From a virus (taxonomy: Duplodnaviria; Caudoviricetes): a stretch of 64,000 bases of DNA. The notes beneath the pieces were generated by a model. The model was given only the letters and a program-made list of their open reading frames with translations, searched no databases and was not told where the DNA came from. The stretch is from the IMG/VR virus record IMGVR_UViG_3300042460_000519, positions 1,638-65,637 of that record; one strand, 5' to 3'. Positions 4,867-41,909 of the stretch are shown here, one piece after another (positions within the stretch are counted from its first letter, which is position 1; each line of letters starts with the position of its first letter). The position numbers and the translations under genes were made by a program.

Positions 4867-4880
4867 CTAATCTCCACAAA

Positions 4881-7251: not shown

Positions 7252-7268
7252 AGTTTTAAGTTATTAAA

Positions 7269-8117: not shown

Positions 8118-8121
8118 GTTA

Positions 8122-8325: not shown

Positions 8326-8345
8326 TTGTTTGTTATTAATTTGTG

Positions 8346-8576
8346 TTAATATAAGTCTTCATATACATATGTTGTATAAGGATCTAGTTTTGTTATTATG
8401 CTGGATTCTGAATTTATATAATTCATACGACCAAAATCATTATACATTGAAATGTATTTAGTTATTTCTTTGAGAGCATATGCTTTAGTATAACTACCAA
8501 GAGTATTAGCTGGAACCTTGTGATAATGCTTACCACCACTTCTATTTCTTTTGTCTTTATATATTCTTAAATCCAT
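8346..8576 (-). CDS. Hypothetical protein
   Basis: 76-aa ORF with ACATTATG start context. Confidence 0.6.
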   Translation of the reverse strand: MDLRIYKDKRNRSGGKHYHKVPANTLGSYTKAYALKEITKYISMYNDFGRMNYINSESSIITKLDPYTTYVYEDLY

Positions 8577-8675
8577 AATGTGTATAAATTAAAAACAATT
8601 AATTATAGCGTGTGTTATATCCTTTAACGCTCTTCTAAACTACACCAATCATCTGTTGGTAATTAATTGTTATAT

Positions 8676-8906
8676 TTAAAATGTAAATGTGAAATGTATA
8701 TGAGAGAATATATAACATATGCATTTAAACATTAGAATAATATATGTAGAAAAAAGAGAAGACCAAAGAATATTAGCTGTTCTATACATTTTTCTTTGTC
8801 TAGCACCTTCGTCTAATGTAATATACCAATAAGCAATAGCAAATAGTATAAAGAATACAATGATGTGTATACACACACTTGTAACGTTAATGTTGATTGT
8901 TGTCAT
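8676..8906 (-). CDS. Two-TM membrane protein
   Basis: 76 aa with two hydrophobic helices. Confidence 0.55.
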   Translation of the reverse strand: MTTININVTSVCIHIIVFFILFAIAYWYITLDEGARQRKMYRTANILWSSLFSTYIILMFKCICYIFSHIHFTFTF

Positions 8907-8920
8907 AATTTGTTATGTAT

Positions 8921-9112
8921 TTAAAATTCATTTATTATATCAATAGGATAATCATCATCCCACTCATCATCATCATCATCTAGAGATAATAAATATTCTA
9001 TAAGATCTAACTTTCCACTAAGATATGCAACACTCTGTACATCTACTTCTTTATAAGCTTCTTCTAATCTAATAGATATATTCTTCTTTTGTTCTTCTAA
9101 TATTTCTTTCAT
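8921..9112 (-). CDS. Small acidic protein
   Basis: 63 aa with a poly-Asp C-terminus. Confidence 0.6.
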   Translation of the reverse strand: MKEILEEQKKNISIRLEEAYKEVDVQSVAYLSGKLDLIEYLLSLDDDDDEWDDDYPIDIINEF

Positions 9113-9137
9113 AATGTATAATGTATTAAATAAGGCC

Positions 9138-9356
9138 CTAAACTAATAGAGCCTTATATTGGTTATTAAATAAATCATCTATACAGAATGAACATAACAT
9201 TCTATGTCCATACTTATTACCATTCTCATCTATTTTAAAGACTTCTTCTCTAAGATCTCCAAATGATGTATTAACTATTGTATTACATTCATCACACTTA
9301 CATACATATGTAGGTTTAATGAATAAAGAAAGATCAACTTGTTTATTTGTTACCAT
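9138..9356 (-). CDS. Small Zn-finger-like protein
   Basis: CKCDEC...CSFC. Confidence 0.55.
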   Translation of the reverse strand: MVTNKQVDLSLFIKPTYVCKCDECNTIVNTSFGDLREEVFKIDENGNKYGHRMLCSFCIDDLFNNQYKALLV

Positions 9357-9497
9357 AATGCTATATAATAATGTTATCGTTTATTAATTTGTTTTTGTTT
9401 TATACACACTTGTTTGAGGCAGTGTAATACACCTCTATATCTTAATATCTATTCACATATTCAATTTATTGAAAGAATATTAGTGAAACATTATATT

Positions 9498-9620
9498 CAT
9501 TGCGAATAATGTAATTCACTTTTATAAAAGAGCGTCTTTTTTTATACACCATTGCGAATAATGCAATATATTGATATGTTTTTTTTAATAGCCCACCCTT
9601 ATTTACAAATCCCACCCTTA
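9498..9620. repeat. Short direct repeats in a non-coding gap
   Basis: cattgcgaataatg at 9498-9511 and 9550-9563; cccaccctta at 9592-9601 and 9611-9620. Confidence 0.8.
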
Positions 9621-9621
9621 T

Positions 9622-9662
9622 ATATAATAACAATAGCAAGCCCAATTAAGGACTTGCTATTG
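9622..9662 (-). terminator. Stem-loop terminator after 9672..10187
   Basis: Minus strand CAATAGCAAGTCC-TTAATT-GGGCTTGCTATTG followed by TTATTAT. Confidence 0.75.
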
Positions 9663-9671
9663 TATTATGCA

Positions 9672-10187
9672 TTACATTGCAACAAGGTCTTCCAAGTTAA
9701 TGGCAACTGACGCAAGTTTTTTGTTAAGCATTTCTTCTGTAATGGTAACACGTGTGCTTGACATGTCTTGTCCACCTTGATTAGAGATGGTGTAGATTAC
9801 AAGAGGCTTTAATTCTCCTGTTTCTTCATCTGCCACCATAATAGGCTTACCAAAGTTTGGCGATGTTTCATCACGCTCTACTTGAGGAAGTTCAAGAATT
9901 GGTAACAAAGCAATGTTGTCAAGCTTTGTTTGTAATTCAGCTTCTGATGTTGAAGCACGCAAGTCAAGACTTAATGGTTCAGAACAATTAACGTAAACAC
10001 GTTGTCCCTTTGCATTATAAATTGCAATAGTAACGCGATTAAGTTTGTTGGTCTTTTCATTAAGAACCCCTTTGAAGTTCTTCTTGCTTGATAATTCGTG
10101 GTAACCACCCACTCCTGCATACTCTGCAACTGTACCAATGGTTGTTAATGTACTTGCTTGTTGTGCAACGTCTTTGAATTGTAACAT
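9672..10187 (-). CDS. First leftward gene; hypothetical, possibly nucleic-acid binding
   Basis: 171 aa, monocistronic with its own terminator. Function not recognised. Confidence 0.75.
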   Translation of the reverse strand: MLQFKDVAQQASTLTTIGTVAEYAGVGGYHELSSKKNFKGVLNEKTNKLNRVTIAIYNAKGQRVYVNCSEPLSLDLRASTSEAELQTKLDNIALLPILELPQVERDETSPNFGKPIMVADEETGELKPLVIYTISNQGGQDMSSTRVTITEEMLNKKLASVAINLEDLVAM

Positions 10188-10427
10188 AATTTCTAATTTT
10201 TAAATTGTTTTTATAATGAGTTGTTTACTCCTAATGTAAAAAGGGTTTTGGGATGGAATGATGTATGTGTTATTTTGTGAAACAGCAATCCATTGTCAAC
10301 ATTTGCAACAGTGATGTGCAATGTGTGGGAGATAACCCAACTTCTCAAATTGTTTGGGGGGTTTTGATTTGGAGTAAGCTAACCAATTACACACACAAAG
10401 GGTTTCAAAATTTGGGAAAAAATTTTT

Positions 10428-22898: not shown

Positions 22899-23462
22899 AT
22901 GCCATCATTAAACTTAGATATTTTAGTAGTTCCTACGTATAACACATTAACTCTTGGAGTTATTGATGCTTCTACATATCCAACTACTCCCCCTAATGTA
23001 ACATCTCCAACAATAGAAATAACTCCTCCTGGATTTAATGTTGCAGTTATTCCTTTTGATGTTGATAATTTTAATATCTTTACATCAGCAAATTTAGGAA
23101 TTTCATCAGCAGGGACTAGTCAACCTCTTCCTGATGGTGTATATCACTTAAGATATTCCATTGCACCTGCATTTGTAAACTTTGTAGAAAAGTCTATAAT
23201 GCGTACAGATCAAATTCAAGAAAGATTTGATCAAGCATTTATGACACTTGATATGATGGAGTGCGATAGTGCAATTAGAACACAATCTAAAGTGGAACTA
23301 ACATCTATATATTTTTTTATTCAAGGAGCAATTGCAGCAGCTAATAACTGTGCAATAGTAAATGCAAACAAACTATACAATCAAGCAGATAGAGCATTAA
23401 CAGCTTTCATAAGAAATAATTGTGGATGTTCTGGTAATAATTATATAAACAACTTTAATTAA
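22899..23462 (+). CDS. Virion structural protein (fibre hub/collar-like)
   Basis: 187 aa with LPDGVY.LRY and Cys-rich helical end; first gene of the fibre block. Confidence 0.55.
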   Translation: MPSLNLDILVVPTYNTLTLGVIDASTYPTTPPNVTSPTIEITPPGFNVAVIPFDVDNFNIFTSANLGISSAGTSQPLPDGVYHLRYSIAPAFVNFVEKSIMRTDQIQERFDQAFMTLDMMECDSAIRTQSKVELTSIYFFIQGAIAAANNCAIVNANKLYNQADRALTAFIRNNCGCSGNNYINNFN

Positions 23463-23469: not shown

Positions 23470-23589
23470 ATGGCAAATTGTGGAAACTGTGGTGCTAATG
23501 TTGGATGTGGATGTCAATTAAGAGATGGCTTATGCGCAGCTTGTCGTGCTGCTGCAAATAAAGCATTAAAATTTTTTAGATTATGTTAA
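23470..23589 (+). CDS. 39-aa Cys-rich peptide
   Basis: Hand-translated MANCGNCGANVGCGCQLRDGLCAACRAAANKALKFFRLC; A-rich leader; overlaps the start of the next gene. Confidence 0.7.
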   Translation: MANCGNCGANVGCGCQLRDGLCAACRAAANKALKFFRLC

Positions 23590-24581
23590 CACCTAGATTA
23601 ACTAATTGTGCACAATGCGAAGATATATGTTCATTAATTGAAAGTATAGATTGCAAGGTTGCAGAGATGAGTGTTAGCTTATACAACAATGTTGTATTTA
23701 TGCTAAACAAATCTTTCAACCATGAACTACTTTCTGATTTATTGAACTATAAACGTATTCTACAGTACAAGGTGTGTAATCCAAATTATGCAGGACATTT
23801 CACTGTCAATATGATTGCTAGTAAAGTGAGAAGATTTACATCTGGATGTATAAAAGATTGTAGTTGTCGTACTTCTGGTGCAGGAACTATAATTACAACA
23901 ACATCTACAAGTACCATCCCACCTCTTACAACTACCACTACTTCTAGTTCTACCAGTACTACAACCAGTACTAGTACCACTATAGTACCAACTACAACCA
24001 CTACTAGTTCAAGTAGCACTAGCACAAGTACGTCAACTAGTTCTAGTACATCTACTAGTACTAGCTCAACAACTAGTACAACTACTACTGAAGGACCTAC
24101 AACTACTACCACTAGTTCTAGTAGTACGTCAACTACTACATCAACCAGTAGTAGCACTACTACAACTACTACAACAGCGTGTGTAAATAGACCAGTAGGT
24201 TTAACTAATGGTAATTTAATACAAGCTGTTAATAACCCAGGAGATCCATCTAGAAATTTTTCTAATGTGTCTGTTGCATATGCTTGTGATACATTTAGTT
24301 ATTTTAGATCAGTACCTATGACAACAGGTTCAGGAGCAAGTTATATAGATATGCAATATAGCACACTAGCTATTGGGGAAGTAATATATAATGATAATAA
24401 TGGAACTAATTGTGTTAGAGTTGCAAATGGGTTTTACTGGTTTCAACCAAATATTATTAGTCCAATAACATACTTTAAAGGTATTAATCAAATAAGTATT
24501 GTTACAACAGTAGGTGGAGTAATTACAGCAATTGATATTTGTGATTATGTTCCAACAACTACAACAACAACAACAGTATAA
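23583..24581 (+). CDS. Thr/Ser-rich fibre or decoration protein with Cys module
   Basis: Cys-rich helical N-domain, about 95 aa of nearly pure Thr/Ser, then a C-terminal module also present in 35149..41040. Confidence 0.75.
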   Translation: MLTPRLTNCAQCEDICSLIESIDCKVAEMSVSLYNNVVFMLNKSFNHELLSDLLNYKRILQYKVCNPNYAGHFTVNMIASKVRRFTSGCIKDCSCRTSGAGTIITTTSTSTIPPLTTTTTSSSTSTTTSTSTTIVPTTTTTSSSSTSTSTSTSSSTSTSTSSTTSTTTTEGPTTTTTSSSSTSTTTSTSSSTTTTTTTACVNRPVGLTNGNLIQAVNNPGDPSRNFSNVSVAYACDTFSYFRSVPMTTGSGASYIDMQYSTLAIGEVIYNDNNGTNCVRVANGFYWFQPNIISPITYFKGINQISIVTTVGGVITAIDICDYVPTTTTTTTV

Positions 24582-24602
24582 ATAAAATAAAAATAATATA
24601 AC

Positions 24603-25727
24603 ATGTCTTGTACAAATTGCTTTAATGGATGTGCTGAAACTATCTCAGATCAGTGCGTAAAATATACAGGAATAGATGTTCCTGCTCTTGGCATTTCAAC
24701 TGGTGATAATTTATTATCTGTTGAAAATGCAATTACAAACTTTCTTGTTCCAGCAATAAATGGTACAGGAATAAAACCTATTATAGATCCTAACATTATA
24801 TGTGACATTGTAAAAAGTTATCTTCCTCCTTGTACTACGTGTGTAGGATTTACATTGAATGAAGTACTTACAGCAATAATAGAAGCAACATGTGATGTGC
24901 AAACACAAGTTACTGGAAATACTACTACATTAAACACACTTAATGCAAATTATATAATAGGTTGTTTAACAGGAGTTACAGCTTCTTCAGATACACATGA
25001 TATTGTGCAAGCTGTAATTAATAATCTTTGTTCTTTAAATAGTGCATTCTCTGCATTAATAGTAAGTCTTCCTAATACATATGTTCCTATTAATTCTTCT
25101 CCAGGAAATCCTGGAATCAATGATTATATTGAAACATATATAAACACAGAAAGCACTACGTTACTTGCTCAAGGTAGAATGATTCCTTATACAGCAGTTC
25201 CTTATTATGGACCATTGTCTGGTTATCCAACTGCAACTGACAGTCTTAGTTTACTAGGGCAAGGTATAGGATATTGGGCTAAAATATATTTATGTAATGG
25301 ATTAAATGGTACACCAGATTTAAGAGGAAGAACATTAGTAGGGGTAACTACAGGAATGGGTGGAGGGATATTTGATCCTGCTGTAGATCCAGCTGTAATA
25401 GGTAATCCTAATTATGGTATAGCAACAACTGTTGGAGAAAATACAGTAACATTAGGTGTTGGACAAATTCCTTCACATTCACATATTATTGATACTGTAG
25501 TTGACTTCAATGATCCTGGTCACAGTCATACATATGAGGGTGCAAATTGTTGTAGTGGTAATAATAATAGTGGTAGAAAATCTTCTCCAACTACTAAAAC
25601 AACAAGTACTCAACAAACAGGAATAACAGTAGGAGTTACAGCAACTGCACGTGATTTTGGAGGAGGAGGTTCTCATAACAATTATCAACCATCAAGAGGT
25701 TGTTATTATATAATGTATATACCTTAA
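24603..25727 (+). CDS. Tail fibre with phage tail-collar domain
   Basis: LCNGLNGTPDLRGRTLVG...VTL...QIPSHSH...DPGHSH...SHNNYQP...YIM is the tail-collar/short-fibre signature; Cys-rich 'type B' N-terminus. Confidence 0.8.
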   Translation: MSCTNCFNGCAETISDQCVKYTGIDVPALGISTGDNLLSVENAITNFLVPAINGTGIKPIIDPNIICDIVKSYLPPCTTCVGFTLNEVLTAIIEATCDVQTQVTGNTTTLNTLNANYIIGCLTGVTASSDTHDIVQAVINNLCSLNSAFSALIVSLPNTYVPINSSPGNPGINDYIETYINTESTTLLAQGRMIPYTAVPYYGPLSGYPTATDSLSLLGQGIGYWAKIYLCNGLNGTPDLRGRTLVGVTTGMGGGIFDPAVDPAVIGNPNYGIATTVGENTVTLGVGQIPSHSHIIDTVVDFNDPGHSHTYEGANCCSGNNNSGRKSSPTTKTTSTQQTGITVGVTATARDFGGGGSHNNYQPSRGCYYIMYIP

Positions 25728-25733
25728 TTACTT

Positions 25734-26840
25734 ATGTGGCCATTCTTACCAAAAAAATGCAATTGTCCAGAAACTCCTACTAACCCAGGAACATCATGTG
25801 ATCATAGTGGTCTTACCACTAATGATTTAATATATAATGGTCCAAATGGAGTGTGTTCTAATGTTACTACAGAAATGACAGTAACAGAAGCGTTTCAACA
25901 ATTAGATTATTTTTTATGTAGCGTAGAGTTCACACAATATCTATTAGATTTAATACAAAACAATCCAAACTTATTTCCTAATTTCATTACATTAGTTAAT
26001 GGAGCAATTGATTGTAGTACAATAATTGCATGTGGTCCTCCACCTATTGATTGTACATTTACAGCAAGTGCTAATCAAATTCTTTTATGTACATTTACAG
26101 CAAGTGCTACTGAATTACCTACATGTAATTTTACAGGAAGTGTTAATCAAGTTCCAGATTCTACTACTACATCTACAACTAGTAGTTCTTCAACTAGCAC
26201 CAGTACCAGTACCAGTACCAGTACTTCTACATCTACTACTACCACTACATGCCCATGTTATACTTGGGATATTGATGCAACTGCACCAGATGTTGCAGCA
26301 GGACTTAATCTTGCTTATATAAACTGTAATGGTGATCCTACTAATGAAGAGATTATAGGTGGTCGTCCTTTTACAAGATGTGTACAATCAGGTAGTACAC
26401 CTACATTAACTAGAGATGATTCTGCTCCACTAGAAGATTCAACAGTAACAATAACAAGTGACTGTTGTACATCACCTCCACCTATCTCATCAACAACCAC
26501 AACAACCACTAGTAATACATTTGGTCCACTAATTGTTCAAAATGATTCAGTTAATCTTACAGTAAATTCTGTCACAGCACTATTTGCTTTTATAAGTATT
26601 CCACCTACTCCTCCAACTACAATAACAACAGGAACTCACGAAGCTTTGGTTAACGCTATTACTGTTAACGTTACTTCAAATATAGCTCCTAATTGTATGA
26701 AACTTTATATAGGTGGTTCTTTTATACAGCAGGTAACTATTGTTGGAACTGGAGCACATCAATTTGATCCACTTATTGTTGCTGATACAGTTGAAGTTAA
26801 AATAGTAATTAATGATTTTGAGTGTATTGAACCTGAGTAG
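25734..26840 (+). CDS. Thr/Ser-rich modular fibre protein (type B anchor)
   Basis: ND.IY.GPN..C..VT...TVTEA N-domain, three 12-aa CTFTAS repeats, T/S linker and CPCYTWD module. Confidence 0.75.
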   Translation: MWPFLPKKCNCPETPTNPGTSCDHSGLTTNDLIYNGPNGVCSNVTTEMTVTEAFQQLDYFLCSVEFTQYLLDLIQNNPNLFPNFITLVNGAIDCSTIIACGPPPIDCTFTASANQILLCTFTASATELPTCNFTGSVNQVPDSTTTSTTSSSSTSTSTSTSTSTSTSTTTTTCPCYTWDIDATAPDVAAGLNLAYINCNGDPTNEEIIGGRPFTRCVQSGSTPTLTRDDSAPLEDSTVTITSDCCTSPPPISSTTTTTTSNTFGPLIVQNDSVNLTVNSVTALFAFISIPPTPPTTITTGTHEALVNAITVNVTSNIAPNCMKLYIGGSFIQQVTIVGTGAHQFDPLIVADTVEVKIVINDFECIEPE

Positions 26841-26874
26841 TCATTAAAGTTAATAAATAAAAATAAATAAAAAC

Positions 26875-28008
26875 ATGATAATAGTAACAACATTAGTTAT
26901 TCCTCCTGGAAATGATCCTGGGCCATTTAATCTTTATTCAGATTCAGATGGGTACACAGTTCCATTTGCAACGAATGTGTCTGCTGCTGCATTGCAAGCT
27001 GGATACAGTTCAACTGTACCTAATGACGCTACAATAATTAGAGTGATGTCTACTGGATTGTGTACAAACTTTATTGATTTAAATATAAATTTAATTACTA
27101 CCACTACAACAAGTAGTTCAACTAGCACCAGCACTTCAACTAGTACATCTACTTCAACCAGCACAAGTACTTCTACTAGCACTAGCACCAGTACATCTAC
27201 ATCAACTAGTAGCAGTACCACTACAACTACTACTACATCAGCGTGCACTTGTTATAATCTAACTTCTATACCTCTTGGGGTTTCTATAGGCAATACAGAA
27301 TTTGACTATATAGATTGTTTCACAAATGAACCTGCATCTATTATAGTGTTTACTGATACTCCAGTAGATATTTGTGCTAAAACAGGTAGTGTAATAAAAG
27401 GTGCAGGAGATCCTGGACTAACCCTTCCATCTGAGTCAGATTGTTGTGGACTAATAGTTTGTGAATGTTACGAGGTGAATTATATTGGTCCACCAGACCC
27501 AGAATTCCCTACTATTGGAGTTACATATTTCTCATATCGTAATTGTTCAGGGGATCTAGTAAATACTGCTGTAGGAAACGATTTAGGATTCCCACTCTTT
27601 CAAAAAATTTGTGCTCAAGAAGGTACTATTACAATAACTGGTGGTGATGAAGGCTGTGGTGGTAGTGGTTTACCATGTGCTACTTGGGACATAACAACTG
27701 GTGTGGATTGTTGTCTATCATTTTTCCCTTCTTTTATATCTGAAACACCAGAACCTATAAATGGTTGTGCTGCAACATTAGATACTCCTTGTTGGGTATC
27801 AAATATTGGTGGAACAGCAGGTAACGAAATAATAACTAGTAGCAGTACTGTTTATCTTGATTCTACTGGTACTATTCCATTTATAGGAGCTGGAGTAGAT
27901 AATTTTTATAAAATAACAATTACAGGTAGTACAAAATGTACATCAAGTGAAGTTGCTCCAGATGGTGATGTTGGTGGTTTAATTGGTATATGTTCTACAT
28001 GTCCATAG
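26875..28008 (+). CDS. Thr/Ser-rich modular fibre protein (type A anchor)
   Basis: GPFNLYSD.DGY..PFATN N-domain, long TS linker, tandem C.CY...Y..C...IC...CC modules. Confidence 0.75.
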   Translation: MIIVTTLVIPPGNDPGPFNLYSDSDGYTVPFATNVSAAALQAGYSSTVPNDATIIRVMSTGLCTNFIDLNINLITTTTTSSSTSTSTSTSTSTSTSTSTSTSTSTSTSTSTSSSTTTTTTTSACTCYNLTSIPLGVSIGNTEFDYIDCFTNEPASIIVFTDTPVDICAKTGSVIKGAGDPGLTLPSESDCCGLIVCECYEVNYIGPPDPEFPTIGVTYFSYRNCSGDLVNTAVGNDLGFPLFQKICAQEGTITITGGDEGCGGSGLPCATWDITTGVDCCLSFFPSFISETPEPINGCAATLDTPCWVSNIGGTAGNEIITSSSTVYLDSTGTIPFIGAGVDNFYKITITGSTKCTSSEVAPDGDVGGLIGICSTCP

Positions 28009-28037
28009 TAAAAAATAAATAAAAAATAAATAAAAAC

Positions 28038-29426
28038 ATGATAGCATTAATAACATTAGTTATACCAGTAGGAGGTTCTGCTGGACCATTTGATCTCTAT
28101 TCAGATGCAAATGGTTATACAATTCCATTTGCAACAAATATATCAGCTGTTGTATTACAAGCTGGATATACATCTAATGTTGTTCCTGATGGTACAACTA
28201 TAATTAGAGTGACTTCTGTAGGTATATGTACAAATTCTGTTGATACACCAATAAATTTAATTACAACTACAACTACTAGTAGCACATCTACTAGTAGCAC
28301 GTCAACTACGTCTACATCAACAACTGTTGCTCAAGCATGTTATGTATATGAATTAACAGCAACAATTGATAATGCTAGTTGGACAGCACAGTTATGTTCT
28401 GGAGGTGTTACGTCAGGAGTGTTACCTTTTATTGGAAATACCTTTACAACACCTTGTATTATAAATACATCATTAGTATTAACTGGCATCACTGCTTTTA
28501 CAAATTCTATTGATTGTTCAACAACCACAACAACTAGTAGTAGTTCAACAAGTACAAGTACAAGCACAAGTACCAGTACATCTACTAGCACAACTACATC
28601 AACTAGTTCTTCTACAACAACAACCACCACTACTGAATGTCCATGTTATACTTGGGATTTTGTAGTAGGTCCAACTGATGCAGCAGAAGGAGGAGTTAAT
28701 CTTCAATACACTCAATGTAGTGGTGCTCTTAAAATTAGACGACAACTAACTGCAGGCACATTTAGTGTTTGCATAGGTTCAAACGAAATATATGATATAA
28801 CAAAAATTGAAGGTGGAACTGTTGACGATTCAACATTAACAATAACTAGTGAATGTTGTACACAACCACCATATACTTGTCAAACATATCAGATAAATCC
28901 TCCTGTAGACTTTGGAGATCCATCACACGTTGTGGAATATATAGATTGTGTTTCAAACATTCCATTTACTGTATCGTTAGTATATGGTGATGGTGGTGTT
29001 CCTATATGTCAATCAAGTATAGTAAGTGATAGTAACAGCTTACTTACAGATGGACCTTTAGGATCATGTCCAACTACAACCACAACTACTACTCCAGCTC
29101 CTTCTATTTTAAATTGGGAGTATCAAAAAACTTCACCATCAGAAGGACTTTTATCAATAGAACTAAATAGTAGTGGTGTTTTAGCACAAACTACTGATGG
29201 TTCAGGTACAATAACACCTTGTAATGTTGGGGATATATTAGTTGTTGAAGCTATTCCTACAGCACCAGTTGAAAACACTACAGTAGAACTTACTATAACC
29301 AATTTTTCTGGAACAGTATTTTATGAGACACAAACAGGAGGAGCATCAATAACAACACCACCAATTACAATACTAGTAGGAGAATCTCCTTATTTAGTGG
29401 ATGTGAAGTTTTATGCTGCAATTTAA
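28038..29426 (+). CDS. Thr/Ser-rich modular fibre protein (type A anchor)
   Basis: N-domain closely paralogous to 26875..28008; three linkers and several Cys modules. Confidence 0.75.
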   Translation: MIALITLVIPVGGSAGPFDLYSDANGYTIPFATNISAVVLQAGYTSNVVPDGTTIIRVTSVGICTNSVDTPINLITTTTTSSTSTSSTSTTSTSTTVAQACYVYELTATIDNASWTAQLCSGGVTSGVLPFIGNTFTTPCIINTSLVLTGITAFTNSIDCSTTTTTSSSSTSTSTSTSTSTSTSTTTSTSSSTTTTTTTECPCYTWDFVVGPTDAAEGGVNLQYTQCSGALKIRRQLTAGTFSVCIGSNEIYDITKIEGGTVDDSTLTITSECCTQPPYTCQTYQINPPVDFGDPSHVVEYIDCVSNIPFTVSLVYGDGGVPICQSSIVSDSNSLLTDGPLGSCPTTTTTTTPAPSILNWEYQKTSPSEGLLSIELNSSGVLAQTTDGSGTITPCNVGDILVVEAIPTAPVENTTVELTITNFSGTVFYETQTGGASITTPPITILVGESPYLVDVKFYAAI

Positions 29427-29449
29427 TAATAAAATAAATAAAAAATAAA

Positions 29450-30889
29450 ATGAGTTGTTCAAATAATATAACCCCTTGTGGATGTGGAAATAATCCATGT
29501 GGATGTGGAACTTCATCAAATGATGTTGTATACCAAGGACCTAATTTATCATGCACTGGTGTAACAAATTGTGACACTGTTACAGAAGCAATATCAACAA
29601 TAGATGGATTTATTTGTAGTCCAGAAATGGTTCAAAATATTATTAATAATATTTTAAATAATACAAATCTATATAATCAGTTTACATCAATTGTAAATAA
29701 TACAGTTGATTGTCAAACAGTGTGGGATTGTATTAACGCATCATCAACCACTACTACATCTACCACTGCAATTCCTTGTGTTTGTACTACATATTTTATA
29801 GCAGGGTCGATGTTTAATCCTGGTGCTGTAACATATGTTCCTTGTGGAGCAACTCAAGTTGTTACAATACAAGTAACTGATATTGTTGAAGAGATATGTG
29901 TTGATAATACATATGGTGTTATTGCAACAGGAAGTGCAAGTTTCAGTAATACATTTGATTGTTGTGTTGCATCAACCACTACAACCACCACTTTGGCTCC
30001 AACCATTACAACAACAACCACAATACCACCAACTACCACAACTACAAGTTCTAGTTCAACAAGCACTTCTACAAGTACGTCTACATCAACTAGTACATCT
30101 ACTAGTACTAGCACTTCTACTTCAACAAGTACTAGTACAAGTACAACAACAACAAGTTCTAGTTCTACAACAACAACCACAACTATTAAACCTAGTTGTT
30201 CAGTATATGAACTAGAAACTACAGGTCCTGGTTCAGGTCTTGGAGAATGTGATTGGTCAGGTATAGATTGTAATACAGGTCTTCCAGTTGGAGCAACAAT
30301 TCCATACCCTGGTACTACTAGTACAGGATGTATAGTTGATAGTTCATTAGTATTAGGATCTAAAGTGGCAGTAATTTCTTCTATATCTTGTGATCCTATT
30401 GTATGGGAAGTAGATTCTCCTGGTTGTTGTGATACATCAGGACGTGAATTTATAGAACTACCTTATGATACTGTTCTAGGTGATACTGTATATGCCACAG
30501 ATGGAAATTGCTATAGAGCAGTAAACACTTCTGTAGCATCTCCAACAATAACATTAGGAGATTCTACTATTTACACTGATTGTAATGACTGTGTAGCTGC
30601 ACATCCTTGTCCAACTACAACCACTACAACTACTTTACTAACATGTAAAATATGGAATTGGGAAGCTATAGGACTTAATGATTCAGGTTTAGAATATACA
30701 AATTGTGATAATGTATTTACAGTTATTCCTGTAATAGATATAACAAATAATTCAGGAAGTATATGTGTTTATCCAGGTACAACTCCTATTTGGAATCCTG
30801 GACCATCATTAGGTACTCATGAATTAGGAACAAATAATATACCTTGTGGAACACCAGCAACAACAACTACCACTACGACAGTCGTTTAA
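29450..30889 (+). CDS. Thr/Ser-rich modular fibre protein (type B anchor)
   Basis: N-domain paralogous to 25734..26840; four Cys modules; ends TTTTTTTVV. Confidence 0.75.
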   Translation: MSCSNNITPCGCGNNPCGCGTSSNDVVYQGPNLSCTGVTNCDTVTEAISTIDGFICSPEMVQNIINNILNNTNLYNQFTSIVNNTVDCQTVWDCINASSTTTTSTTAIPCVCTTYFIAGSMFNPGAVTYVPCGATQVVTIQVTDIVEEICVDNTYGVIATGSASFSNTFDCCVASTTTTTTLAPTITTTTTIPPTTTTTSSSSTSTSTSTSTSTSTSTSTSTSTSTSTSTSTTTTSSSSTTTTTTIKPSCSVYELETTGPGSGLGECDWSGIDCNTGLPVGATIPYPGTTSTGCIVDSSLVLGSKVAVISSISCDPIVWEVDSPGCCDTSGREFIELPYDTVLGDTVYATDGNCYRAVNTSVASPTITLGDSTIYTDCNDCVAAHPCPTTTTTTTLLTCKIWNWEAIGLNDSGLEYTNCDNVFTVIPVIDITNNSGSICVYPGTTPIWNPGPSLGTHELGTNNIPCGTPATTTTTTTVV

Positions 30890-30906
30890 CTTAAAACCAA
30901 CGTATT

Positions 30907-31557
30907 ATGACAGTATTAATAACCTTAACTATAGCAGGAACTGATTCAGGCCCTTTTGACCTTTATTCAAACCTTGATGGATATCTATCAGCTTTTGAGT
31001 CAGCTGTACCTAAAGCGTCATTACTTGCAGGATATCCATCATCTTTTGTTCCTGATTTCACAACAACTATTAGAGTGAGATCAAACAATCCATTCTGTAC
31101 AAATTATGTTGATATTCCTGTACAAGAACCAACTACAACTACAACTACAACTCCTAGTCCCACTTTACCTTTGGGATCTTCAATAGGTTTTCCAGGTCCA
31201 GATACTTGTACAAGTCTAACAGTTACTTCTAGTTTTACAGATGGTGGGGGTACTTTAACTCAACGAGGAATATGTTATAACACAACTGGAAATCCAAGTT
31301 TTGCTGATTCTATATTTGAAGGACCAGTTGTTACAGGTATTTCAACTGTTGATGTTACAGGTTTAACTCCTGGTACTACTTACTATTGGAGAGCTTATGC
31401 TATTAATGAAATTGGTATTGGTTATTATCCAACTGTTTTATCTAATCCAACAGGATTTGTGTTTTCTACAGCTCCTTGTTCAACTAGTACAAGTACAAGT
31501 ACAACTACTGTTGATCCAGGTACTACAACCACCACAACCACTGGTCCAGTATTATAA
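30907..31557 (+). CDS. Type A anchor plus fibronectin type III-like domain
   Basis: GPFDLYS N-domain; DGGG..TQRGICY...GLTPGTTYYWRAYAINEIG is a Bacteroidota FN3 signature. Confidence 0.75.
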   Translation: MTVLITLTIAGTDSGPFDLYSNLDGYLSAFESAVPKASLLAGYPSSFVPDFTTTIRVRSNNPFCTNYVDIPVQEPTTTTTTTPSPTLPLGSSIGFPGPDTCTSLTVTSSFTDGGGTLTQRGICYNTTGNPSFADSIFEGPVVTGISTVDVTGLTPGTTYYWRAYAINEIGIGYYPTVLSNPTGFVFSTAPCSTSTSTSTTTVDPGTTTTTTTGPVL

Positions 31558-35148: not shown

Positions 35149-38100
35149 ATGACAGATAATACATCTCAAGATAGTACACCACAAGGAAACATTAAATTAG
35201 AATATAATGTTGCTTCAACAGGTTTAAATTTAGATAACACTGTTAATCAAGTATCTAAAGGGCAATTGACGTATGCATTAAATGCATCTGTTGAAAACTT
35301 TGATTCTTCATCAGTTAATTATCAAAATGAACCAGGGAATGAAGCATGTATAACTTTTCCAAATGAGTTTGTTTTAATAGGAGCACATTTTATTCAAGAA
35401 AAAAATAAACATATATTCTTTATCACAAATCCAATTACAGAAGAATCTGAAATTGGATTTATGGAAAATAATGATTGTCAGTATCAAACATTAGTTAACG
35501 CTAGTTGTTTAAATTTTAATATAAACTATCCAATACATAAAGTTGTACATAAGATTACAAATTGTACAACAGAGATATATTGGACAGATGGATTTAATCC
35601 TAGAAGATATTTAGATATTGAAAACATTCCTTGGAAATTAAAAGTTACTTCAAATCTTTGTGATCCTACTCCTGATATAGGTAATTTAGATTGTAATCAA
35701 TTAAAGTTACAACCTAATTTTAATATTCCAGAATTATCAATAGTTGATATTAGAAATGGTGGTGATTTAACTTCTGGTACATATCAATTTGCAATACAAT
35801 ATTCTGATGCATCTGGTAATCCATATACATCATATTATTCTGTTACAAATCCATGCCCTATTGCTGACATACGTACAACCACTCCAAATTTTAATTATCA
35901 AGTAGGAAAATCTATTGTTATAAGTATTGATAATCTTGATGAAACAGGACTTTTTCAATATTTTAATTTAGCAGTTATAAAAACAATAAATGACATTCCA
36001 TCTGTAGAATTAGTTGGGACATATTTTATTGATCAATCAATAAAAAATATTACATACACAGGACAGAATCAAACACAAATAAGACTTACGATACAAGATA
36101 TATTTGAAAAGTTTCCTTATTACGAATTAGCAAATGATCTAACAGCTGTACAAGACGTTCTTGTATGGAATGGACTTACATCTATAGATAGAATAAACTA
36201 TCAATCTATTGCTACTCAAATTACTTTACAGTGGCAAACATATAAAATACCTGCTACAGAAAACTATGCTGATGAATTAAATGCTACAAACTTGCGTGGT
36301 TATCTACGTGATGAGGTGTATGCATTTGAGATTGTATTCTTATTAAGAAATGGAAAACAAACAGATGGTTTTCATATTCCTGGAAGATTAAAAAATGTTA
36401 ATGAAGCATATCCAGATGTACCTAATACAAATTCTGATTTTATAGGAAATGGAACTTCTGCTCCTTATTGGAAGATATATAATACAGCTTCTGTAACAGG
36501 AACTGCTTTAGGAGATCCAATTGGAAATGCCACTCCATATCAATATGGTGAATTTGCTTATTGGGAATCAGAAGATGTTTATCCTTGTAATATAGATCTT
36601 TGGGGAGATCTTGCAGATCAACCTATTAGACATCATAAGTTTCCAGATGTTCTTGTAAGTCCTATATTTGAATCAGTAATTTTTGGTGGAGCATCATCAA
36701 TGGTTATGCAAAATGACGCTGTATTTCCTATAGGAGTTAAAATTGATATAGATCAAGTAAGAAATTTAATTATAACATCTTCTCTTACAAAAAGTCAAAA
36801 AGATGATATTATTGGATTTAAAATAGTTAGAGGAAATAGAGGAACAAATAAATCAATTATTGCCAAAGGTATTCTTAGAAATGTTAACTCTTATAAAAGA
36901 GAAGAGCAAGAATTCTATTTTCCAAACTACCCATATAATGATCTTGATGTAGACCCTTTCTTAAATCAAAATAATAATGCATGGTTGCAAACAGCAGAAC
37001 CATGGTTGATCATTGGAGAAGCACTTGAAAATGGTAAAATTATAATTCAATATACAGATTGTAATACTGGAAAGCTTACAACAAGAGACGATATAGTTGC
37101 TGGACAAACAATAGAAATATGTGCAATTACACGTCCTATAACATTACAAGGAAAAGCTCTTATTGGTCCAGGTAATTATGATGTTTGGTATTCTAATGCT
37201 TGTGGAGGTTGTAGAGGATATAGATTTTCTTGGGCAGATCCATTTACAGATAATAATCTTGCTTTAGTAGATAACGATCCTTATTTAGAAGGTTGTGGAA
37301 TTTTTCCTGGATGTTTTTTTGGATGCGATGAAGAATGGGCTAGGGTTGATGTTGGTGGAATAGCTAGAACAGATTGTAATAATAGTTTTTGGGATGGATT
37401 TTGTAAATGCGATGCTTCTACTTTAGACGCTGCTCAAGTAGGATACACAACTCAACCAATCAATGTTATAGATCTTAATGGTGGTACAATAAAACATCCT
37501 AGAATAGGAAGAAGATCTTCTTTAAAAACTAAAGAACAAGTTCCTTTACCAGCATTATCTCTATCTCAAGATACAAATTATAGATATGTATTTAACTCTC
37601 CTGAAACATCATTTGGTCAACCTTTTCTAGGAACTATATTAAAACTTGAGAATGTAATATATGGTGCAGGAAAAGGTCATTTTGTACAAGTTAAAAATAA
37701 TGCTAAATATAAATTACTTTCAGAAGAAGCTCAGAGAGATGCATATGCTAGTTCAGATAAAATTGCAAATCTTGGATCATATAATGCCACTGCTTTATTT
37801 ACAGCATATCAAACATACCTACAAATATATATAAATGGTATAACAAGAAAGAACTATGCTTATTCGTTTAACTCAATAGCTAATTATGATTATTGGGCAT
37901 CTATAAATAATAATCTTGGAATTAAACAAAGAGAAATAGATTATACACAATACTTAATTCCTGGTGTACAATCTGTAGGAGATCCTAATGGAATAGTTAT
38001 GAATAACTTCCAACGTGAATCTTCTGTATTTATTAAAACAATAGAAGATAGAAATGGTATTCCTGTTACAGCTATACCTTTTCCTAGCAATAGTCCAGAA

Positions 38101-41040
38101 ATGCTTGATGGTGGTGGTGTACCTATAGTTACAGATAAATCTAGATTTACAATTTCTAGCATTAATCATTGCGCAACTCCAGCAAAAGAAAAACAACTAA
38201 CTGTAGTTTCATATTATGCTTCAATGAAAAATGATTTTGTCAATCAATGGGGACAAATATATTCATATGATACAGTTGATACAGGATTTCAAAAAAATAT
38301 TACAGATAACAATTCTTCTACAATTTTTGGTGGAGATACATTTATATCTAGATTTGCATTTAAAACAAAAATTCCATTCTTTTTTGATAATAGAGTTAAT
38401 GCTCCTGATGATTCAGATGTGTTCTATGATGAGATTGGTAATGTTGCATATCCAAAATACTGGCATTCTGCTAGATCCATATTAAAAAATATTGGCGACT
38501 TAACTAACTTTATTAGTTATAAAGCACATGAGTTTGATTGCCCTAATGATCCATCAAAAATAGCTCCAGCAACTACAACAGGAGCATATGGATCATATAG
38601 AACATTTTATGATGGATATTTTTATTTATTTGCATATGGTGTACCTAACTTCTATTGTGAAAGTTCTTATAACACAGACCTTAGACAAGCATTTAATAAT
38701 AAAGAAGGAGATTTCTGGCCACACGTAACAACAGGTATTCCTGATGATTGGGTACAAGAAACTTATGTATCTATAGCTAATGATAATACATATACATATA
38801 ATGTAACATTTTCTAAACAAAATAAAGAAAACTTCTTTAGTCATTTACCATCAGATTGGACTGATCAATTATGTTTTACATATTTCCCATTTAGAGCAAT
38901 CTATTCTGATACACAAAATCAAAATGCTGATGTAAGAGTTAATAATTGGTTAATATATAGAGCAACGTCATTATTTGATTTTCCTCAAAATTATGGATCT
39001 CTTACAGCTTTAGATGGAATTCAAAACAGAGCTATATTGGCTAGGTTTGAAAACAAAACATTAATGTATAATAACTTATTAACTATCAATACAAGTAATC
39101 CACAAGCTGCTTATGTTGGTAACCCTAATATGTTTAGTGCTCCTCCAGTTGATTTTGCTGAAACAGATCTTGGATATGTAGGAAGTCAAAATAAAATGTT
39201 ATTAAAGATACCACAAGGACAGATCACTGTTGATGCTAAACGTGGACAAATATTTCTTATTGAAGGTACACAAGCTGTAGATCTATCTGGATTTGGTTCT
39301 GGAATGAATAGATTCTTTACAGACCATTTAGCATTTGAAATACTTAGATATTTTCCTAATGTTTCAACAGATAATCATTTTAATGGAATTGGACTTCATG
39401 GAGTGTATGACAGTAAGTTTGAAAGAATTATTCTTACTAAATTAGATTATATTCCTATTGATAAAGATATTAAATATGATGCTATAACAAAACAATTCTA
39501 TTTAGAAACAATTATAGATGGCAACAGTGTCATTAGATCAGAAGTTTATTTAACAGATTCTGATTATTTTTGTAATAAGTCTTGGACAATATCATTTAAC
39601 TTCAATACAAAATCTTGGATTTCTTTTCATAGTTATATTCCTAATTGGTACATAGGAGAAAACAATTTCTTCTATTCTGGAGTTAATGGATGTTGTACAG
39701 ATATTGCAGGAGACTTTACAGCAATTGTTGGTACGCTTAATAAAATACCTCCAACTACTACTACCACTAGTTCAACTACATCTATATCTACAACAATGGC
39801 TCCAAGACTAAAAAAAGATTGTGATTTAGAAGGTGTTATTGTTGAAACATTATGTGAATTAGAAGGAGATGCAGTTATAACAGTTCCACCATCAACAACA
39901 ACAACAGTGTGTGTAAGACCATCAGACTTATCACGAATAACATTTTTATCAGGATATCAAATAGAGCCAGATCCTATTGTTGATTCAACTATAAGTTTTG
40001 AAGCTGCATGTGGTGCATTTGGTATATTAACATCTTCATCTACTGCAATTCCTGAAGGATTTAATGTTGGTTACTCAACTTTAGAAATAGGAAGCGTTTT
40101 GTATTATGATTATAATAATAATGATTGTACATACGTACCTGATGGTTGGTATATAACACAAGAAGGATTGTATAATGGATTTGTATATTATGTAGAAGGT
40201 GGAACATTAACTTCTAAAGACTATTGTGATTGTGGAAGCACTACACCTGATACAACTGTTATTCCAAATATTCAAGAATGTTGTGGAATATTATTTTCAA
40301 CTATTGATGGGGTTTATTATAGTGATACTATTACAACAGATATGGCTTTATTAAATATTCCTAATTTCAGTTCTACATATGGAATAGCTATGACAGCTAA
40401 TTACTTATGGAGTGTAACTACAGAGTTCTTAATGTGGGATATTACATTAAGTCCATTCAGTGCAACATTTAATACAGCTATACCATTCCCAGGAGCATTT
40501 ACAACTTCTTCAGGAATAGTTGCATTAAACGATACAACACTAATTACAATAGGTGATTATTCTTCACCACAAGATGTTGTAGAGCTGGTTCTTGATTGCA
40601 ATGTAACTCCTCCTGCATTTATTTCTACAGTTCAATTTAGTCTACAAGCAGATAGAATTGCACTTAGTAATATGTTATATACAACTACAGAAAAATTAAT
40701 TGTTATTAATCAAGATACAATAACATCTGATTATTATTTAACACAATATGAGTATCCTTCAGGAATAATTGAATTAGATTTAAATATAGGATCAATAGTT
40801 CCAACATCAATATATGAATGTGCATGTATAATATATATAACTACAAGTTTAGATGTGTTATATACAATAGAAAAATCATCTCCTAATTCATTAGTTGAAG
40901 TGACAACACTAACATCAAATGCATTTATTTCTGCTACACAAGTGGCAACATGTGTAGGAGGATCGTTAATTGATAGTGTAGTAACAACTACAACAACAAC
41001 CACTATTGCCATTACTACAACATCAACAACAACAGTATAA
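35149..41040 (+). CDS. Tail stabilisation (muzzle) protein, N-terminal part, with Cys/Thr-rich insertion and extension
   Basis: GLNLD..., IYWTDGFNPRR, G.L.SGTYQFAIQY, GYLRDEVYAF, FGGDTFISRF and WTISF...WISFHSYIP propeller motifs; about 450-aa C-terminal extension of fibre-type modules. Confidence 0.75.
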   Translation: MTDNTSQDSTPQGNIKLEYNVASTGLNLDNTVNQVSKGQLTYALNASVENFDSSSVNYQNEPGNEACITFPNEFVLIGAHFIQEKNKHIFFITNPITEESEIGFMENNDCQYQTLVNASCLNFNINYPIHKVVHKITNCTTEIYWTDGFNPRRYLDIENIPWKLKVTSNLCDPTPDIGNLDCNQLKLQPNFNIPELSIVDIRNGGDLTSGTYQFAIQYSDASGNPYTSYYSVTNPCPIADIRTTTPNFNYQVGKSIVISIDNLDETGLFQYFNLAVIKTINDIPSVELVGTYFIDQSIKNITYTGQNQTQIRLTIQDIFEKFPYYELANDLTAVQDVLVWNGLTSIDRINYQSIATQITLQWQTYKIPATENYADELNATNLRGYLRDEVYAFEIVFLLRNGKQTDGFHIPGRLKNVNEAYPDVPNTNSDFIGNGTSAPYWKIYNTASVTGTALGDPIGNATPYQYGEFAYWESEDVYPCNIDLWGDLADQPIRHHKFPDVLVSPIFESVIFGGASSMVMQNDAVFPIGVKIDIDQVRNLIITSSLTKSQKDDIIGFKIVRGNRGTNKSIIAKGILRNVNSYKREEQEFYFPNYPYNDLDVDPFLNQNNNAWLQTAEPWLIIGEALENGKIIIQYTDCNTGKLTTRDDIVAGQTIEICAITRPITLQGKALIGPGNYDVWYSNACGGCRGYRFSWADPFTDNNLALVDNDPYLEGCGIFPGCFFGCDEEWARVDVGGIARTDCNNSFWDGFCKCDASTLDAAQVGYTTQPINVIDLNGGTIKHPRIGRRSSLKTKEQVPLPALSLSQDTNYRYVFNSPETSFGQPFLGTILKLENVIYGAGKGHFVQVKNNAKYKLLSEEAQRDAYASSDKIANLGSYNATALFTAYQTYLQIYINGITRKNYAYSFNSIANYDYWASINNNLGIKQREIDYTQYLIPGVQSVGDPNGIVMNNFQRESSVFIKTIEDRNGIPVTAIPFPSNSPEMLDGGGVPIVTDKSRFTISSINHCATPAKEKQLTVVSYYASMKNDFVNQWGQIYSYDTVDTGFQKNITDNNSSTIFGGDTFISRFAFKTKIPFFFDNRVNAPDDSDVFYDEIGNVAYPKYWHSARSILKNIGDLTNFISYKAHEFDCPNDPSKIAPATTTGAYGSYRTFYDGYFYLFAYGVPNFYCESSYNTDLRQAFNNKEGDFWPHVTTGIPDDWVQETYVSIANDNTYTYNVTFSKQNKENFFSHLPSDWTDQLCFTYFPFRAIYSDTQNQNADVRVNNWLIYRATSLFDFPQNYGSLTALDGIQNRAILARFENKTLMYNNLLTINTSNPQAAYVGNPNMFSAPPVDFAETDLGYVGSQNKMLLKIPQGQITVDAKRGQIFLIEGTQAVDLSGFGSGMNRFFTDHLAFEILRYFPNVSTDNHFNGIGLHGVYDSKFERIILTKLDYIPIDKDIKYDAITKQFYLETIIDGNSVIRSEVYLTDSDYFCNKSWTISFNFNTKSWISFHSYIPNWYIGENNFFYSGVNGCCTDIAGDFTAIVGTLNKIPPTTTTTSSTTSISTTMAPRLKKDCDLEGVIVETLCELEGDAVITVPPSTTTTVCVRPSDLSRITFLSGYQIEPDPIVDSTISFEAACGAFGILTSSSTAIPEGFNVGYSTLEIGSVLYYDYNNNDCTYVPDGWYITQEGLYNGFVYYVEGGTLTSKDYCDCGSTTPDTTVIPNIQECCGILFSTIDGVYYSDTITTDMALLNIPNFSSTYGIAMTANYLWSVTTEFLMWDITLSPFSATFNTAIPFPGAFTTSSGIVALNDTTLITIGDYSSPQDVVELVLDCNVTPPAFISTVQFSLQADRIALSNMLYTTTEKLIVINQDTITSDYYLTQYEYPSGIIELDLNIGSIVPTSIYECACIIYITTSLDVLYTIEKSSPNSLVEVTTLTSNAFISATQVATCVGGSLIDSVVTTTTTTTIAITTTSTTTV

Positions 41041-41042: not shown

Positions 41043-41909
41043 ATGTCAAAAACTATTGTAATAAAGATAACCAAAACAGGACCTAATGCAGGACCTTTTA
41101 ACATCTCCACAGAGTTTGGGGATGTTCTTGCTACAGATGTTTCTAAAAAACAATTAATAGTTGGTGTTACATATATTGTTGATGATAATGTTACAAGTAT
41201 AATACTAGAATCTACAGGAAAATGTCCTGTTAAAAAATTCTTTTTTTTAGAATCTTATACCCCATTTGAATATGCTAGTTCAGCATATGTGCAATCAAGA
41301 ACAGCATGTCTATGGAGACACTTAACAAATATTCAATTGTATAATTCTTACTATGGAATTACACAACCATATATAATAGAATACCCTTTTGCTTATCAAT
41401 ACCAAGATGAAATCTTGCAGAACGTAAAAGACTACACTAAAGCGTATGAATATCTTGCTATACCAGATGGTGTATTTAATGATAACACACGAATAGAAGT
41501 TGATAACAAATGGTTTAACAAAGCTATTCTATATAATGGGCAACAGAGTTCAGGACTATTAGAACTAGTAGCTAAACCAATGAATAATCTAAGAGCATAT
41601 GGTCAATATCCAATATTCAATACTAACAGTAAAACAATCACATATACAAAGAGTGATAACTTCTATCAGTATAATACATTCTGGGCTTTAAACAAAAGTC
41701 CTTATGTTCCAATGTTCAATACAACATGTGAGTCTATGTCAATAGATAAAGTGATTAATGAAGCTAATATGGACTATGGCACTAGAAGCTTTAAGAAAGC
41801 CACGCTAAGAGCAAAAGAATTAAAGGTGAGACATATATTAGATAACAGTTCAGAAACGCATTTAGTGAGTCAATTTATAATCGCTCCTGCACAAATGTCA
41901 TACAAGTAA
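41043..41909 (+). CDS. Type A anchor fused to the probable C-terminal part of the tail stabilisation protein
   Basis: N-terminal AGPFNIST...ATDVS...IILESTGKC matches the type A domain; then LWRH...YNSYYG...YIIEY...FNKAILYN.QQSSG. Confidence 0.6.
   Translation: MSKTIVIKITKTGPNAGPFNISTEFGDVLATDVSKKQLIVGVTYIVDDNVTSIILESTGKCPVKKFFFLESYTPFEYASSAYVQSRTACLWRHLTNIQLYNSYYGITQPYIIEYPFAYQYQDEILQNVKDYTKAYEYLAIPDGVFNDNTRIEVDNKWFNKAILYNGQQSSGLLELVAKPMNNLRAYGQYPIFNTNSKTITYTKSDNFYQYNTFWALNKSPYVPMFNTTCESMSIDKVINEANMDYGTRSFKKATLRAKELKVRHILDNSSETHLVSQFIIAPAQMSYK

Follow-up and report, generated by a model that had tools for sequence, protein, structure and literature searches.

As described in part of the report by Bayfield et al. 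2023 (PMC10172136), phage crAss001 carries the fibres gp21 and gp29 on its head and gp22 on the hub proteins gp38 and gp39; gp21 is trimeric and gp29 dimeric, two kinds of hexon pocket are bound by N-terminal docking segments (residues 1-38 and 1-58), small binding domains, an Ig-like one among them, are borne distally, and disulfides stabilise the tail. The same authors considered that other crassviruses may use uncharacterised analogues of the head fibres (PMC10172136). The subject here is a 64,000-nt stretch of DNA from a divergent crAss-like phage (positions 1,638 to 65,637 of IMG/VR record IMGVR_UViG_3300042460_000519; hereafter the window), in which a block of seven open reading frames (ORFs) at nt 23583-31557 encoded proteins built of constant domains, Thr/Ser tracts and small modules. 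Across related loci the constant domains, namely anchors A and B and domains N and F, were retained and the module strings varied, modules were exchanged between anchor types, and folds were obtained for anchor A and one module family. The block probably represents a hypervariable, tail-associated adhesin or receptor-binding cassette that is diversified by module shuffling at the linkers.

Compared with crAss001 as covered by that source, the two systems are alike in that short N-terminal parts dock the fibres at fixed sites, or would do so here to judge from the genes, and in that small binding domains are borne on flexible distal parts; the adjacent genes for the ring and muzzle proteins and at the hub position were also syntenic. 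They differ in that N, F, A and B had no detectable similarity to gp21, gp22, gp29, gp38 or gp39, the only match, a weak one, being that of the protein encoded at nt 22899 with gp38 (proteins are designated by the first nucleotide of their genes), and in that the crAss001 fibres are large enzymatic or lectin proteins lacking Thr/Ser tethers and strings of mini-modules. Unlike those of crAss001, the fibre genes of the window follow the hub-position genes and not the portal gene.

Several other systems share single elements with the block. Tailspikes of Klebsiella and Escherichia podoviruses and myoviruses have a conserved N-terminal anchor and a horizontally exchanged distal specificity domain, with several receptor-binding proteins per virion; each has one large trimeric enzymatic domain and structured necks, whereas up to about ten Cys-stapled modules on long low-complexity linkers were found here. 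Accessory small beta-sandwich binding domains are known from the carbohydrate-binding modules of "evolved" Dit/Tal proteins of lactococcal and streptococcal phages and from the Ig-like T4 decoration protein Hoc; they are insertions or fixed C-terminal domains, in contrast to a multi-gene cassette with shared anchors and Thr/Ser tethers. Thr/Ser(/Pro) spacers between small binding modules also occur in cellulosomal and glycoside-hydrolase proteins and in mucin-type tracts, but these belong to secreted, often glycosylated cellular proteins, whereas the proteins considered here are encoded in a phage structural operon and made in the cytoplasm. The initial annotation had likened the block to eukaryotic mucin-like surface proteins more than to phage fibres. 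In that form the comparison was not supported, since the likeness to mucins appears to be one of composition only and an anchor with a swappable distal domain is a known principle of phage receptor binding. Accessory binding modules on tails or capsids are likewise known; the new elements are the long Thr/Ser tethers, the strings of up to about ten mini-modules, the single module pool common to five kinds of constant part, the muzzle protein included, and the size that the family reaches within an uncultured lineage of crAss-like phages. The array matched no characterised fibre family in sequence, profile or fold searches, and no description of this architecture was found in the main texts of the literature searched (Thr-rich phage-fibre linkers and freshwater crAss-like phages).

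Organization of the block

Six genes with a constant N-terminal domain, a Thr/Ser tract and small modules, as initially annotated, were present at nt 23583-31557, where all seven ORFs lay on the + strand. The protein of nt 23583-24581 consisted of domain N (residues 1-101, with 8 Cys), a 97-residue Thr/Ser tract region (residues 102-198), which was the longest found, a 126-aa module and a poly-Thr C-terminal tail. F, encoded at nt 24603-25727, was a conserved fibre protein; its N-terminus was rich in Cys, and its C-terminal domain resembled those of tail fibres. Anchor B headed two proteins, those of nt 25734-26840 (30-aa tract, 79-aa module, 11-aa tract and 106-aa module) and nt 29450-30889 (four module regions and a 71-aa tract region), and anchor A headed three, those of nt 26875-28008 (anchor at residues 1-74, 51-aa tract and a 252-aa Cys-rich region with 18 Cys), nt 28038-29426 (modules parted by three tracts) and nt 30907-31557. 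The module of the last one was weakly fn3-like (21.5 bits, under the 25-bit cut-off) and was followed by a Thr/Ser tail.

Tract residues made up 404 of the 2,608 residues of the seven proteins versus 42 of 16,100 in the other 29 ORFs of the window, these 42 being located in protein 21681 and the muzzle C-terminus. Genes 23583, 29450 and 30907, as well as the muzzle gene, ended in poly-Thr directly before the next anchor. The possibility that the tracts are spurious low-complexity ORFs was rejected because of the long reading frames, the conserved flanking domains and the two confident folds.

Cysteine content was 1.9-6.5% in the block proteins versus at most 1% in head and internal proteins. 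Values of 3.3%, 2.9% and 2.1% were observed for ring protein 2, 21681 and 22899, respectively, and 0-0.5% for the capsid, the portal and the giant proteins encoded downstream. High cysteine content in tail-exterior proteins is consistent with disulfides that stabilise the exposed parts of the tail, a feature reported for crAss001.

Modules common to different anchor types were found inside the window itself. Residues 174-249 of 25734 resembled residues 202-278 of 28038 (blastp E 1e-14), residues 100-158 of 28038 resembled residues 249-312 of 29450 (E 3e-5), and residues 200-321 of 23583 resembled residues 1588-1694 of the muzzle protein (E 2e-9).

Exchange of modules among related loci

The comparison set comprised 80 loci around 31732, an exonuclease-like gene downstream of the block (67-94% identity), and the window, giving 81 sources. 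Both flanking genes were held by 60 of these (59 relatives and the window), and the other 21 were excluded for a missing flank. Proteins were cut at their Thr/Ser tracts, and the 689 pieces obtained were clustered into 88 families. Domain N was found in 59 of the 60 loci and F in all 60, one copy each; anchor B headed 91 proteins in 49 loci and anchor A 87 proteins in 51 loci. A few divergent loci had neither A nor B and had other first domains (20 "other" proteins). The length of the block ranged from 2,621 to 8,656 nt.

The prediction that interchangeable modules are carried on constant anchors was borne out by the occurrence of 46 architectures in the 60 loci and by the distribution of the module families, 84 of the 88 being variable and 19 of these 84 occurring behind at least two kinds of constant part (m4 and m6 behind N, A and B; m10 and m15 behind A and B). 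Distinct module strings numbered 48 in B proteins, 31 in A proteins and 23 in N proteins. A fixed module order across relatives, which had been named beforehand as an outcome that would refute the idea, was not observed. The same architecture was shared by 19 of 21 locus pairs with a 100% identical flanking protein and by none of the 32 pairs in which that protein was 95-99.9% identical, with a mean module overlap of 0.28. At the DNA level, the flanks matched 90-138 of the fetched loci and module segments 0-7; inside the block, only the segments of F and of the A anchors and, less strongly, those of the B anchors retained matches (8-116 loci), and the best-matching locus differed from one module segment to the next. 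Through module shuffling, close relatives would display different module sets and would thus probably differ in adsorption or host range.

Properties of the modules

Modules had been described as mostly Cys-bounded, and Cys residues near both ends were indeed found in 195 of 301 unique variable modules versus 55 of 301 after shuffling. The commonest Cys module, for which several clusters were united, accounted for 149 domains in 70 loci and was about 55-62 aa long with three invariant Cys. Its model (28038 residues 97-160; pLDDT 85.5) was a small all-beta domain; among viral models the best match was an uncharacterised protein at E 7.8e-3, and no fold was assigned. Database proteins carrying this module were all unnamed metagenomic proteins, many on contigs of up to about 117 kb, and the only Pfam domains recorded on them were PF09603 and one PF26707. 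When the 23583 module was used as a query in the ESM Atlas, all matches were unnamed viral clusters with scores under 0.9.

One family, m6, which occurred in the relatives and not in the window, was identified as Fib_succ_major (PF09603; 103 bits vs a cut-off of 33.9, E 3.1e-29, L131:1260-2714), a domain also precomputed on database proteins bearing anchor B and modules. Family m27 gave a short SSL_N/propeller-type match above the Pfam cut-off, and sub-threshold matches to fn3, LRR, CshA-repeat and DUF6355 were observed among the module representatives. In the parts of two reports that deal with them, Fib_succ_major/DUF1566 motifs are classed with the C-type-lectin-fold variable proteins of phages and bacteria, and the Fib_succ_major motif with targets of that fold for diversity-generating retroelements in Bacteroides phages (PMC8143477, PMC5758913). 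The domain of m6 is thus the same as the one described there as a variable ligand-binding tip, which supports a ligand-binding role for at least m6. According to these sources, variation in the Bacteroides phages arises by mutagenic retrohoming within one domain (PMC8143477, PMC5758913), whereas the module strings compared here point to the swapping of whole modules.

Anchors A and B and domains N and F

Anchor A had been assigned to 26875, 28038, 30907 and, in diverged form, 41043, and all four assignments were confirmed. By blastp, 26875 shared 63.5% identity with 28038 (E 3e-25) and matched 30907 at E 1e-13, and a profile of A built without 41043 matched residues 4-61 of that protein at E 2.7e-9. 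The AlphaFold2 model of the 74-aa anchor, made from 28038, was a seven-strand beta-sandwich (pLDDT 91), and the anchor carried one invariant Cys. The best fold match (Z 6.5, with 66 residues aligned at an rmsd of 2.5 A) was to 8gl8_D, which comes from a type 9 secretion system complex, and FN3 domains gave a Z of about 5; the likeness to FN3/Ig domains and to chains of such complexes is generic only. Foldseek found no match in the PDB at E<=0.001. A fold search of a viral library gave five matches at E<=0.001, all uncharacterised proteins of "Virus NIOZ-UU157", which is a label for an unclassified virus; the two papers found to mention that virus say nothing on these proteins. Among 1.84 billion representative proteins, carriers of anchor A formed 1,795 clusters at 50% identity, 1,348 of them at E<=1e-10. 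In the 150 best clusters, the anchor began within the first 5 residues in 148, and a Thr/Ser tract started at residue 60-100, right after the anchor, in 131.

Anchor B had been proposed for 24603, 25734 and 29450. The proposal stood for the latter two (41% identity, blastp E 2e-19) and was not confirmed for 24603, which matched the B anchors by blastp only at E 0.09 and by hhalign at E 0.002 with a probability of 14% over 51 columns; the B profile had no match to 24603 at E<0.1. It therefore appears to be a remote relative of B at best, with a conserved family of its own, F. Anchor B begins with a segment rich in Cys and has a conserved Y-x-G...C...C-D motif. In 55 of 67 B anchors this was followed by a run of about five heptads with Cys-Cys at its end, versus 0.9% of shuffled sequences, which suggests an oligomeric stalk. 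A 36-nt tandem repeat (2.9 copies, + strand) was observed at nt 26052-26155 in gene 25734, where it separates the B anchor from the first tract; it encodes C-x-F-T-A/G-S-x-N-Q-x-x and also follows B anchors in relatives L096, L120 and L128.

The N domain of 23583 is a further anchor family, which the initial annotation did not name; it occurred as a stand-alone 88-aa protein in some relatives and was extended by a tether and modules in most. F had one architecture throughout the relatives, with a tail-fibre-like C-terminal end. Its residues 226-372 matched the tail protein/tail fibre families phrog_8763 (E 1.2e-15) and phrog_8469 (E 4.3e-12), and its match to Pfam Gp10_C was 17.3 bits, below the 27-bit cut-off. 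With 21681, 22899 and 24603 as sequence queries against solved structures, no match had an E value below 0.18.

Proposed relationship of the block to the tail

The block genes lie on the same strand as, and inside, the structural operon, between the head/hub genes and the ring/muzzle genes. By gene order, the start of the block corresponds to the place held in crAss001 by gp39, a small hub protein, and its end precedes ring protein 2. A placement on the tail is suggested indirectly by this order, by the tail-fibre-like C-terminus of F and by the linker-module extension of the muzzle protein. This extension (nt 39751..41040, + strand) consisted of a Thr/Ser tract, a 393-aa module region and a Thr-rich tail, the tracts being at residues 1535-1549 and 1945-1963. 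In 42 muzzle ORFs (41 relatives and the window), a conserved body was followed by a variable extension of Thr/Ser tracts and modules, which accounts for lengths of between 1,481 and 2,175 aa; tracts were present after residue 1200 in all 42.

The gene that follows, at nt 41043..41909 (+ strand), encoded a 288-aa protein in which an A-like domain (residues 4-61) precedes a region corresponding to the muzzle C-terminal domain of other crAss-like phages. Residues 88-286 matched positions 1588-1781 of the 1,783-position family phrog_15100 (E 2.2e-11), and the end of the muzzle body matched positions 1540-1587, directly before the C-terminal domain in other crAss-like phages. Between body and C-terminal domain there were thus, in order, a tether, modules, a stop, a start and the A-like domain. 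From this arrangement we infer that a linker-module cassette split the muzzle gene and that the A-like domain is part of the muzzle complex, which would make the tail tip the most likely docking place of the A-anchored proteins. The gene directly after the muzzle gene carried an A-like domain in 15 of 42 cases. In some relatives, for example L089, L111 and L151, the break in the muzzle occurred earlier, just before the last conserved segment of the body. When all 65 A-anchor sequences were scanned against PHROG, none matched a family at better than E 0.01 and no muzzle family was found; the link between anchor A and the muzzle therefore comes from 41043 alone.

Just upstream of the block, nt 22899..23462 (+ strand) encoded a 187-aa virion protein (phrog_31752, "virion structural protein", E 1.2e-7). 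It is possibly the counterpart of the crAss001 tail hub A protein gp38; its gene position, between the auxiliary-capsid and R2 genes, agrees with the crAss001 gene order. The protein was found in 1,542 database clusters, and because the homologues listed were all at least 67% identical, a deeper profile was of no help in the comparison with the tail hub.

Proposed mode of action and alternative explanations

In the cassette proposed here, N, F, anchors A and B and the muzzle body would be the constant parts built into the tail. From each of them a Thr/Ser tract of 7 to about 120 residues would run outward as a flexible tether that gives reach, and each tether would carry one to about ten small beta-rich domains, mostly Cys-stapled near both ends, that may bind structures of the host surface, probably glycans. 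Recombination, duplication and deletion between modules would generate new combinations, the linkers serving as the points of joining; an exchange point in linker DNA would leave the folds undisturbed, and end-stapled modules could be inserted or removed as units. The poly-Thr gene ends before a next anchor and the proteins that consist of an anchor and a tail fit such frequent cutting and joining at linkers. Differing module sets would confer differing adhesion specificities, and paralogues with the same anchor would be expected to compete for one docking site. The cassette would then mark the most probable site of host-specificity evolution in these phages, and anchor, tether and module may serve as sharply bounded natural units for the study of phage adhesin recombination.

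A number of observations weigh against this reading. Virion display, tail location, docking by the anchors and ligand binding are deduced from the genes. The anchors had no detectable similarity to 22 crAss001 structural proteins (hhalign probability 1.1% or less throughout); N showed no clear similarity to gp39 (E 0.11-0.26), and the match of 22899 to gp38, although the best of 22, was weak (E 0.0015, probability 16.5%). The two B anchors of the window, which belong to a subtype, had heptad scores of only 7 and 8 of 10. A binding function is putative for most modules, because the commonest fold had no solved relative above Z 4.5 among 48,161 PDB representatives, and in a Pfam search with one representative for each of the 88 families only two families were above the cut-off. 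Some A proteins consisted of the anchor and a short Thr tail only, with no payload. In one complete relative, Thr/Ser tracts were present in 12 of 127 ORFs, mostly in the structural region and some outside it.

The A- and B-anchored proteins might instead be head fibres, with the two anchor types in two hexon pockets as for gp21 and gp29, and might hold the virion on environmental surfaces or particles rather than serve host entry. As in crAss001, two anchor families with small beta-sandwich payloads were present, and since head- and tail-fibre genes of crAss001 lie together in one cluster, gene position does not discriminate between the two placements. However, the muzzle, which belongs to the tail tip, carries the same linker-module system, and its detached C-terminal domain bears an A-like domain. 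Neither the A nor the B profile, moreover, had similarity to gp21 or gp29 (hhalign probability 0.3% or less; 0.6% for F against gp21), and anchor A is a folded 74-residue sandwich, whereas the docking segments of gp21 and gp29 are short and extended, so that a place on the head appears unlikely. Still less probable is an explanation in which the tracts themselves are the functional part and the modules are of secondary importance, the tracts forming an O-glycosylated brush for shielding the particle or imitating host glycans. Some proteins of an anchor and a tract only, the poly-Thr tails at the ends of many genes and the glycosyltransferase domains of the relatives (GT2 above the Pfam cut-off in 5/5 complete or near-complete genomes, GT1 in 3/5) would fit such a brush, and a 2023 study by Freeman et al. 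reportedly describes virion O-glycosylation in mycobacteriophages. Yet the glycosyltransferase genes are tens of kb away from the block, phage glycosyltransferases commonly modify DNA or host polysaccharide, and module diversity and Cys stapling argue for selection on the modules.

Cys-rich, Thr/Ser-linked modular proteins are also typical of secreted bacterial surface proteins, and the products of the block could accordingly be non-virion proteins that act on the host envelope during infection, for example in superinfection exclusion or remodelling of the host surface. Such a role is very improbable given the position of the genes inside the structural operon, on the same strand and between head/hub and ring/muzzle genes, and the linker-module system carried by the muzzle itself; no typical signal peptide was seen by eye at the N-termini, and in the model of anchor A the N-terminal residues make up one of the beta-strands of the fold.

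The tail-associated adhesin cassette can also be extended to a standardised virion system of plug, tether and payload, in which anchor A would be the plug for a socket in the muzzle; this extension, which resembles the dockerin-linker-module design of cellulosomes, is rather doubtful. Anchor A would have arisen when the ancestral muzzle gene was split by a linker-module cassette and its C-terminal domain (41043), now separate, had to be attached again. Any module string behind an A or B plug would then be hung on the tail, and paralogues with the same plug would compete for sockets, giving mosaic particles of mixed specificity in each burst and a form of host-range bet-hedging. In the boldest form, the tethers would be O-glycosylated by phage glycosyltransferases and make up a viral mucin-like coat. 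Should the anchors turn out to be portable docking plugs, binding modules of choice could usefully be displayed with them on the particles of phages in laboratory strains.

Genome context and other features

The window is contained in a 65.6-kb IMG/VR record with an estimated completeness of 57%. Its + strand is occupied from about 12 kb onward by a crassvirus-type structural operon with genes for the large terminase (nt 12156, phrog_6681), portal (nt 14182, P22_portal, Pfam E 2.4e-16), major capsid protein (nt 18197, Crass_capsid, E 9e-30), ring protein 2 (nt 32955, CrAss_Ring_2, E 2.8e-18), ring protein 1 (nt 34178, CrAss_Ring_1, E 6.8e-11) and muzzle protein (nt 35149-41040, crAss_MUZ, E 8e-34), all on the + strand. 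The Pfam matches of capsid, portal, ring and muzzle proteins identify the window as part of a divergent crAss-like phage, and these genes form a Crassvirales-type virion module in one operon. Very large proteins of 1,545, 879 and 4,075 aa were encoded downstream of the muzzle gene. By profile comparison, 16908 and 33687 matched crAss001 gp31 (probability 86%) and gp42 (94%), respectively, and 19927 and 20923 gave weak collinear matches to gp33 and gp34. No tRNA genes were found within the window, and eight ORFs of 100-360 aa on the - strand of nt 1-10200 had no Pfam match at E<=0.001.

The named phage nearest by major capsid protein was Leptolyngbya phage Lbo-JY46, at only 26% identity, and neither megablast with the block nor tblastn with anchor A gave a match in a collection of named phages. 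Naming a host from genome bins was attempted and rejected; anchor A occurred on 7 contigs of metagenome-assembled genomes, whose labels were too mixed (Sediminibacterium, Cytophagales, Bacteroidetes, Woesearchaeota, Tissierellales, Chthoniobacter and Acidimicrobiaceae). The lineage is uncultured and abundant in metagenomes, as seen from the more than 600 stretches with capsid relatives in IMG/VR (the 80 loci kept being 93-100% identical), the 1,795 clusters of anchor A and the 1,542 clusters of 22899. Profiles of A, B, N, F and the common Cys module could annotate thousands of "hypothetical" metagenomic proteins.

An ORF for a 39-aa protein with 8 Cys was located at nt 23470..23589 (+ strand), its stop overlapping the ATG of 23583; nt 23470, taken initially as the start of the block, is thus the start of this separate Cys-rich ORF, distinct from 23583. 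It had tblastn matches in 141 related loci (45-97% identity), a Cys spacing of CxxC, CxC and CxxC and no Pfam match, and its product is possibly a small factor, structural or for assembly, that binds metal or is linked by disulfides.

Genomes of the complete relatives were 113.6-118.9 kb long, with terminal repeats in two. Within the relatives G001-G005, the GT1 domain lay in an ORF of 711-1,152 aa in 3/5, and the glycosyltransferase regions, for example G003:C1:100123-100416 and 84834-85166, fall outside the record that holds the window. Small ORFs with Thr/Ser-tract ends were observed outside the structural region of G003 at C1:82898-83281, 90899-91081 and 92125-92367.

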